DNA of 64,000 nucleotides from Escherichia coli. Lineage in GTDB: Bacteria > Pseudomonadota > Gammaproteobacteria > Enterobacterales > Enterobacteriaceae. The notes beneath the pieces are model-generated. The model was not told the DNA's origin. It did not search any database and worked only from the letters and a program-made list of their open reading frames with translations. The stretch lies in NCBI RefSeq assembly GCF_050920415.1, contig NZ_CP169309.1; one strand, 5' to 3'. The stretch's first letter is position 1. The number at the start of each line of letters is the position of its first letter. Made by a program: the position numbers and the translations under genes. This document shows positions 47,109 through 47,306 of this stretch, one piece after another.

Positions 47109-47306
47109 GCTTATAAGACATTTACGCCGCATCTGGCATTCAGTGCAAATGCCAGATGCGACGCTGGTGCGTCTTATCTGGCCTACTTTGTTGTAATCCA
47201 TTGAAATAATGGGAATCGTAGGCCGGATAAGGCGTTTACGCCGCATCCGGCATTCAGTGCAAATGCCAGATGCGACGCTGACGCGTCTTATCTGGCCTAC
47301 AGATGA
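47109..47306. repeat. BIME-type array: two tandem copies of a REP-pair unit filling the rcsC/rcsB convergent spacer
   Basis: Two roughly 85-bp units (cgtaggc...gcatctggcattcagtgcaaatgccagatgcgacgctg...gcgtcttatctggcctac) repeated about 115 bp apart, each containing inverted REP copies. Confidence 0.8.

Follow-up and report, generated by a model that had tools for sequence, protein, structure and literature searches.

The BIME-2 elements of Escherichia coli combine z2-type and y-type REPs joined by a short S linker, and are found in tandem, with good conservation among the copies at one locus and a copy number that differs among strains (PMC3333891). BIME-1 elements are made of z1 and y REPs around a long, conserved L linker, which carries an IHF site, and occur as single copies, IHF binding being a property of this class with its long linker (PMC3333891). 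About 60% of the E. coli REPs lie between convergent genes (bioRxiv 10.64898/2026.03.23.713779). By experiment, the BIME-2 array REP325 was found to be a partial, partly Rho-dependent terminator and a stabiliser of the upstream mRNA; short REP segments were not always enough for Rho-dependent termination, and terminal REPs brought no genome-wide lengthening of half-lives (bioRxiv 10.64898/2026.03.23.713779). Another example is REP162 of strain K-12, which appears twice in Table 16 of the same report, a list of “REPs appearing as bidirectional terminators” compiled from earlier work on convergent transcripts with overlapping ends. Both entries are marked Convergent, with rcsB:rcsD:rcsC as the genes; the interval MG1655 2316832-2316874 was seen in log and stationary phase, and MG1655 2316942-2316985 in stationary phase. 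REP162 was not found in the Rho-binding table, its only listing being that of the bidirectional terminators (bioRxiv 10.64898/2026.03.23.713779).

Here, the same locus was studied in the window, a stretch of 64,000 nucleotides of E. coli DNA (RefSeq assembly GCF_050920415.1, contig NZ_CP169309.1). The spacer lies between the facing stop codons of rcsC and rcsB and holds a BIME-2 array of two units, known in K-12 as REP162. Taken as a whole, the explanation that this array is REP162, that it originated by duplication and that it forms the 3′ ends of the convergent mRNAs is considered quite probable. The gene names and coordinates given in an earlier, sequence-only reading of this DNA were confirmed by NCBIfam equivalog models on the flanking ORFs (Table 1), rcsB being 651 nt long in the RefSeq annotation. 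The 601 nt around the spacer, which also served as a query, match strain MFDS1022581 with 100% and K-12 with 94.8% identity. Upstream of rcsD lies the antisense RNA MicF, as it does in K-12. A simple promoter scan of 46800-47600 returned no promoter-like site, and thus no sign of an independent transcript. A 205-aa ORF that runs antisense to the 3′ end of rcsC and enters the array is most likely spurious.

Table 1. Features of the rcsC/rcsB locus, with further REP elements and an RNA gene of the window.
Feature	Coordinates	Strand	Basis or remark
Lone z2-type REP	18144-18179		CCAGAT...ATCTGG variant
rcsC (RcsC, 949 aa)	44259-47108	+	NCBIfam NF008099 equivalog, 1839.9 bits
205-aa ORF	46629-47246	-	antisense to rcsC 3′ end
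Unit 1, rcsC tail, last 19 nt GAAATCGCGGGAATCGTAG = K S R E S stop	47090-47108	+	start of unit 1
Unit 1, y-type REP, decayed in this strain	47105-47138		left arm GGCTTATAAGACA, 1-nt deletion
GTAG outer feet	47105 and 47218		sequence
rcsC stop codon TAG	47106-47108	+	inside GTAG of first REP
rcsC/rcsB spacer	47109-47306		198 bp
Unit 1, S linker TTCAGTGCAAAT, short head-to-head	47139-47150		sequence
Unit 1, z2-type REP, intact hairpin	47151-47186		3 mismatches to z2 pattern
CTAC outer feet	47183-47186 and 47297-47300		sequence
Non-REP stretch between units	47187-47217		31 nt
Inter-unit 16 nt TTTGTTGTAATCCATT	47187-47202		without counterpart after unit 2
Dead copy of rcsC 3′ end and stop codon, GAAATAATGGGAATCGTAG	47203-47221	+	start of unit 2
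Unit 2, y-type REP, canonical	47218-47252		0 mismatches to y pattern (47218-47251)
Unit 2, S linker TTCAGTGCAAAT	47253-47264		sequence
Unit 2, z2-type REP	47265-47300		2 mismatches to z2 pattern
rcsB (RcsB, 216 aa)	47307-47957	-	NCBIfam NF008098 equivalog, residues 16-231 of 231-aa ORF
rcsB stop codon	47307-47309	-	sequence
RcsD	47974-50646	-	NCBIfam equivalog
MicF antisense RNA	50959-51052	-	Rfam RF00033, 116.8 bits
mqo-eco convergent spacer	59028-59289		BIME-2 array, period 113
mqo-eco y REPs	59120-59153 and 59233-59266
mqo-eco z2 REP	59177-59212

The gap between the two genes had been described as filled entirely by two tandem copies of a REP pair that differ by only a few substitutions. 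Self-comparison by repeat search and local alignment bears out the tandem duplication. The repeat search returned a 74-nt direct repeat (47113-47186 / 47227-47300, 93% identity, spacing 114) and, just upstream of it, a 21-nt one (47090-47110 / 47203-47223, spacing 113), which a local alignment of 47090-47186 with 47203-47300 joins into a single repeat of period 113/114, with 97/98 nt, 87 identities, 10 substitutions and one 1-nt indel. This alignment scored 139, compared with 15.0 ± 2.2 (maximum 23) in 300 shuffles. Tandem Repeats Finder reported nothing for the spacer region, because only about 1.7 copies are present. The finer points of the description had to be corrected: the two units do occupy the spacer, but the stretch between them and the 6 nt before the rcsB stop are non-REP; the repeat starts 19 nt inside rcsC and not at the stop codon; and the copies differ at 11 places, which group in the first y REP, on its left arm.

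Each unit comprises a y-type REP, oriented GTAG first, and an oppositely oriented z2-type REP, with a linker of 12 nt between the two, and both units thus hold inverted REPs with a short S linker and GTAG/CTAC outer feet. The 36-nt pattern which we take to define the z2 type is supported by a perfect copy at 59177-59212. The y REP is canonical in unit 2, and its unit 1 counterpart, decayed here, is intact in K-12. With 1, 2 and 3 units seen among strains, the copies are tandem and variable in number. The “duplicated BIME unit” of the sequence-only reading holds and can be narrowed to BIME-2. The locus resembles the rest of this family in its inverse y and z2 REPs, S linker, conserved tandem units, strain-variable unit number and siting at gene 3′ ends, and a pattern search found y and z2 sequences elsewhere in the genome as well. 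It differs from the family in that the repeated unit reaches 15 nt past the REP into the rcsC coding sequence, and in that the tail-to-tail linker is unique to the locus and not a shared family motif.

When folded alone, the y REP of unit 1 reaches -4.3/-5.8 kcal/mol, and that of unit 2 reaches -20.9/-21.3 kcal/mol; the z2 REPs fold at -22.1/-19.7 kcal/mol (unit 1) and -21.4/-20.5 kcal/mol (unit 2). Unit 1 as a whole can still form one long y:z2 hairpin, with -40.8 kcal/mol on one strand and -47.2 kcal/mol on the other. The array region folds at -115.2 kcal/mol (z = -8.9 against shuffles) and, on the other strand, at -117.3 kcal/mol (z = -11.0).

Against the Rfam family RF02564 (naRNA4; gathering score 59.5 bits), whose model derives from the REP325 unit, unit 2 (47221-47297) matches all 77 positions of the model with 84.3 bits on the plus and 62.9 bits on the minus strand. 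Unit 1 stays under the gathering score, at 50.9 bits, because the left arm of its y REP is decayed, and the two K-12 units, which likewise match the full model, score 80.4 and 77.5 bits. The same model also matches the unrelated BIME-2 units of the mqo-eco spacer and therefore recognises generic BIME-2 (y/z2) units, which means that membership in RF02564 is to be read as “BIME-2 unit” and not as “naRNA4 function”. The array REP325 (naRNA1-6, yjdM-yjdN) shares this 77-nt y-linker-z2 unit, to which the locus gives 84 bits over the full model; in REP325, however, six units lie between tandem genes of one operon, whereas two units lie between convergent genes here. Weak matches to the miRNA families MIR6140, MIR3440 and mir-5856, far under their gathering scores, were set aside as reflecting generic long hairpins.

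The boundaries of the repeat are informative about its origin. The 31 nt between the units consist of the 16 nt of TTTGTTGTAATCCATT followed by 15 nt of a dead rcsC tail, and the last 19 nt of rcsC, GAAATCGCGGGAATCGTAG, agree with 47203-47221 at 16/19 positions. Since unit 2 carries this duplicated pseudo-tail, the array grew by segmental tandem duplication and not by two independent REP insertions. Another reading of the flanks was considered and rejected, in which the linker and rcsC tail are a flanking motif shared by BIMEs and the repeat would have donated the rcsC C-terminus. A 36-mer spanning the inter-unit linker occurs at a median of once per genome (present in 4435/5426 genomes), the other BIME-2 in the window has different linkers, and RcsC also ends in RKSRES* in Erwinia and Pseudocitrobacter, one Pseudocitrobacter rcsC ending in TCG TAG with no REP nearby. 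The presence of this ending in genera without the REP indicates that the rcsC tail is ancestral, and that the GTAG foot of the first REP was there beforehand as part of the rcsC stop codon.

The array would thus go back to one old segmental tandem duplication that included the last 19 nt of rcsC, with later expansion, contraction and homogenisation, through unequal recombination and gene conversion between units, yielding the alleles of one, two and three units. The 16 nt of TTTGTTGTAATCCATT at the junction do not fit a simple tandem duplication. As for timing, a divergent lineage labelled E. coli (strain SCPM-O-B-8794, L006), whose RcsC C-terminal domain is 96% identical, has a spacer of 154 bp (2221-2374) with unit 1, the same linker and, replacing unit 2, a single short REP, GTAGGCCAGATAAGGCATTCGGCACTTATCTGGCCTGC, which looks as if the outer arms of a y and a z2 REP had been fused. 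The duplication therefore predates the split of this lineage, an age within Escherichia and its nearest relatives that rests on this one divergent lineage, the 80 loci kept from the RcsC contig scan including no Salmonella, E. albertii or E. fergusonii. In the lineage of the window, TTTGTTGTAATCCATT creates a small hairpin, CCATTGAAATAATGG, which K-12 does not have. A search of complete-genome records found this linker variant, at an identity of at least 99%, in only 228 of them.

The number of units varies. When 39 chromosomal matches were taken at even steps down the hit ranking of the 601-nt query, 7 spanned 488 bp instead of 601-602 bp. In the examples examined, one-unit alleles have a spacer of 85 bp, exactly one unit, while two-unit alleles have 198/199 bp. 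The inter-unit linker is absent from 991/5426 complete genomes (18%), and 35 additional linker places, no genome having more than 3, point to rare alleles with at least three units, as judged from this count. In all, the 5,426 complete genomes are estimated to carry one unit in about 18%, two in about 81% and three or more in under 1%. The second unit is therefore dispensable, given the roughly 18% of genomes that have only one. In strain SBF45 the spacer reaches 313 bp and holds three units, of which the middle one is a chimera of the two beside it.

Unit by unit, 18 alleles were read, and every E. coli allele examined holds at least one unit. Their unit bodies fall into two haplotypes, shuffled between positions: “alpha” (…GGCATTCAGTGC…GATGCGACGCTG…) and “beta” (…GGCAATCGGTGC…GATAAGACACTA…). 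The order is alpha-beta in K-12, alpha-alpha in the window and beta-beta in a further allele (L084); another (L092) has a chimeric second unit, and one-unit alleles are either alpha or beta. This pattern would fit unequal crossing-over together with gene conversion between units. It also fits one-unit alleles having arisen more than once, the direction of change being what we infer from the haplotypes. Compared with REP162 of K-12, the window has the same locus, the same two-unit y-S-z2 architecture and the same kind of linker with its dead rcsC tail, but a spacer of 198 instead of 199 bp, a decayed first y REP, and in unit 2 an alpha z2 body where K-12 has a beta body with a perfected palindrome. 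That palindrome, in the rcsB-proximal z2 REP of K-12 (L001 2838-2914; compare window 47265-47300), reads GCCAGATAAGAC…GTCTTATCTGGC and forms a 14-bp uninterrupted stem in which the usual stem mismatches are lost; the window strain has the canonical mismatched z2 form in both units. This difference points to gene conversion between units.

For the function of the array, the best-supported role is 3′-end formation and mutual insulation for rcsC and rcsDB, shown for K-12 in published data and predicted for this strain. By position, the K-12 interval 2316832-2316874 corresponds to the z2 hairpin of the rcsB-proximal unit (window ~47260-47302) and 2316942-2316985 to that of the rcsC-proximal unit (window ~47149-47192). 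With convergent 3′ ends listed at both z2 hairpins, termination and insulation are supported, so that the earlier proposal of an insulating array stands for K-12 and carries over to the present strain as a prediction. In such a mechanism, the GC-rich REP hairpins, transcribed from either side, would form the 3′ ends of both convergent mRNAs. For rcsC, the end would lie at or just after the z2 hairpin of unit 1; in the rcsC sense this hairpin leads into CUAC-UUUGUUGU, a U-rich stretch that comes from the inter-unit linker. On the rcsC-sense strand of the DNA this z2 REP runs into TTTGTTGT, and TTTGTTGTAATCCATT is T-rich. The rcsDB transcript would end at the z2 hairpin of unit 2, 6 nt past the stop codon. 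The array would thereby limit antisense read-through into the opposite gene, and it probably also blocks 3′ exonucleases. Stabilisation of the mRNAs, which the sequence-only reading had listed too, is no more than plausible; terminal REPs showed no effect on half-lives across the genome (bioRxiv 10.64898/2026.03.23.713779).

Comparison with relatives speaks to the same role. A scan with the RcsC receiver domain gave 67 other Enterobacterales species in which rcsB is convergent to rcsC, with spacers of 31-207 bp (median 63 bp). By the same hairpin and T-run rule as the terminator tool, re-implemented for this purpose, terminator-like sites occur on one strand or both in 40/67 species, reading in the rcsC sense in 21 and in the rcsB sense in 36, and in 16/67 a single hairpin with A-run and T-run flanks serves both strands, as in the bidirectional terminator of Pluralibacter gergoviae, AAAAAGCCTCCGTGATATCACGGAGGCTTTTT. 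The re-implemented scan found no hairpin and T-run terminator in K-12 or in the one-unit E. coli alleles, and the sole match in the spacer of the window is an internal sub-stem of a REP. A GC-rich hairpin with an immediate U-tract, as expected of a Rho-independent terminator, is thus lacking from the spacer, the nearest approach being unit 1 followed by TTTGTTGT. With terminators in the relatives and none in the E. coli alleles, the BIME-2 array stands where a conventional terminator, in many cases a bidirectional one, would otherwise lie. Position and presumed role are the same as for the bidirectional intrinsic terminators of those 16 species; the E. coli spacer, however, does not have the A-tract/U-tract pair around a single short hairpin, and its hairpins are REPs with weak U-rich flanks only (UUUGUUGU, AUUUGCAC).

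REP-type tails are also present in the spacers of a few other genomes, in differing arrangements. REP-like GTAGGCC/GGCCTAC palindromes were seen in Enterobacter asburiae, Citrobacter werkmanii, C. youngae and Escherichia sp. ESNIH1 (L008, L012, L013, L061), where they entered the rcsC/rcsB spacer independently. In E. asburiae they adjoin a bidirectional terminator that has been retained.

The alternative that survives best is that the array is a selfish or neutral passenger, a tolerated repeat spread and resized by TnpA-REP activity and recombination, with no selected role here, the transcript ends at its hairpins being incidental. The unit number is polymorphic (1, 2 or 3) and not obviously constrained, this lineage has a decayed y REP, the second unit of L006 has collapsed to a single fused REP, some Citrobacter and Enterobacter spacers acquired REPs of their own (L008, L012, L013, L061), and the neighbouring mqo-eco BIME-2 is four units off K-12, all of which a passenger would allow. 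It is less easily reconciled with the retention of at least one unit in each of the 18 alleles, or with matches to the 601-nt query at 80% coverage or more in 5336/5426 complete E. coli genomes. Neither does it account well for an E. coli spacer without any other terminator where relatives have one, or for the K-12 convergent transcript ends that map to the array hairpins. A passenger is accordingly held to be possible, although we lean against it.

Another alternative is a translational brake. REPs fewer than 16 nt from a stop codon can stall terminating ribosomes and lower translation (summarised in PMC12306157), and by analogy the stop-proximal hairpins would lower the output of RcsC and RcsB through mRNA cleavage and trans-translation, besides any role as terminator. 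The distances at both genes are within this limit, the first REP overlapping the rcsC stop codon and the CTAC end of the last lying 6 nt from that of rcsB. On the rcsC side, however, the case is weakened because the stop-proximal y REP has no hairpin of its own in this strain, and neither rcsB nor rcsC was found in the supplements of PMC12306157. A brake is considered unlikely.

The array could also be a topological element, that is, a preferred DNA gyrase site that removes positive supercoils between the convergent units, and gyrase binding was among the properties named in the sequence-only reading. As a class, BIME-2 elements are enriched in gyrase cleavage sites, most of all in their y REPs, but only a subset of the elements is cleaved (PMC6379681). 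In the Topo-seq data the matching interval is 2321291-2321487 of W3110 MuSGS, which equals MG1655 2316832-2317028 by an offset of +4459, an assignment made by coordinates alone; the same offset also places the eco-mqo array into its spacer. This interval has 0 cleavage sites in all four conditions (ciprofloxacin, rifampicin plus ciprofloxacin, microcin B17 and oxolinic acid). Gyrase action, a general BIME-2 property, is thus not supported in the coordinate-matched K-12 interval, and a gyrase site as the explanation of this array is very improbable. The Topo-seq table files the interval, oddly, as “BIMEs1” with a nested 35-bp “BIMEs2”.

A bolder proposal is that the unit number (1, 2 or 3) serves as a dial on the Rcs envelope-stress phosphorelay, selected in a lineage-specific way. 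If so, the hairpins on or within 6 nt of both stops would set the reach of each transcript into the opposite gene, changes of BIME-2 copy number together with REP decay would tune RcsC against RcsB/RcsD output, and capsule, motility and biofilm could shift with no change of coding sequence or promoter. Only a slim chance is given to this proposal.

The remaining two readings are weaker. A source of naRNA4-like nucleoid-associated RNA, which with HU would bridge cruciform DNA and condense the chromosome as originally proposed for naRNA4 (PMC4550694), is suggested by the full-length Rfam match above the gathering score; the model, however, also matches the mqo-eco units, and REP325 itself showed neither nucleoid compaction nor HU-dependent REP-REP contacts (bioRxiv 10.64898/2026.03.23.713779), which leaves this reading extremely doubtful. 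A BIME-1/RIB-type element recruiting IHF, the other binding property claimed earlier, can practically be dismissed, as nothing locus-specific favours it beyond the “BIMEs1” label of the Topo-seq table, and the spacer has 36-nt z2-type REPs, a 12-nt head-to-head linker and tandem units, with no match to the IHF consensus WATCAANNNNTTR, whose sole match in the whole window is at 51117.

Returning to the reading of the spacer as REP162 with a 3′-end-forming role, much of it was already known: the array is catalogued in K-12, descriptions of its class go back to the early 1990s, convergent transcript ends have been tabulated at its hairpins, and BIME-2 copy-number variation between strains is published. 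Four details are new, though minor: the unit contains a dead rcsC tail, unit numbers now have frequencies, the array replaces a conventional terminator, and this lineage has a decayed y REP. These would be of use to those engineering or deleting the rcsB/rcsC spacer, or taking it as a typing marker. Beyond annotation the array matters little; it is real but ordinary.

Elsewhere in the window, the convergent mqo-eco spacer is another BIME-2 array, with two Rfam naRNA4 matches. It measures 262 bp here, exactly four 113-bp units less than the 714 bp of K-12 (REP161), and the K-12 version is among the most strongly gyrase-cleaved BIME-2 elements in the published Topo-seq data, with 11 ciprofloxacin sites. 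The lone z2-type REP begins 4 nt after a stop codon (…ATGTAA TCAC GTAGGCC…) and is another stop-proximal REP.
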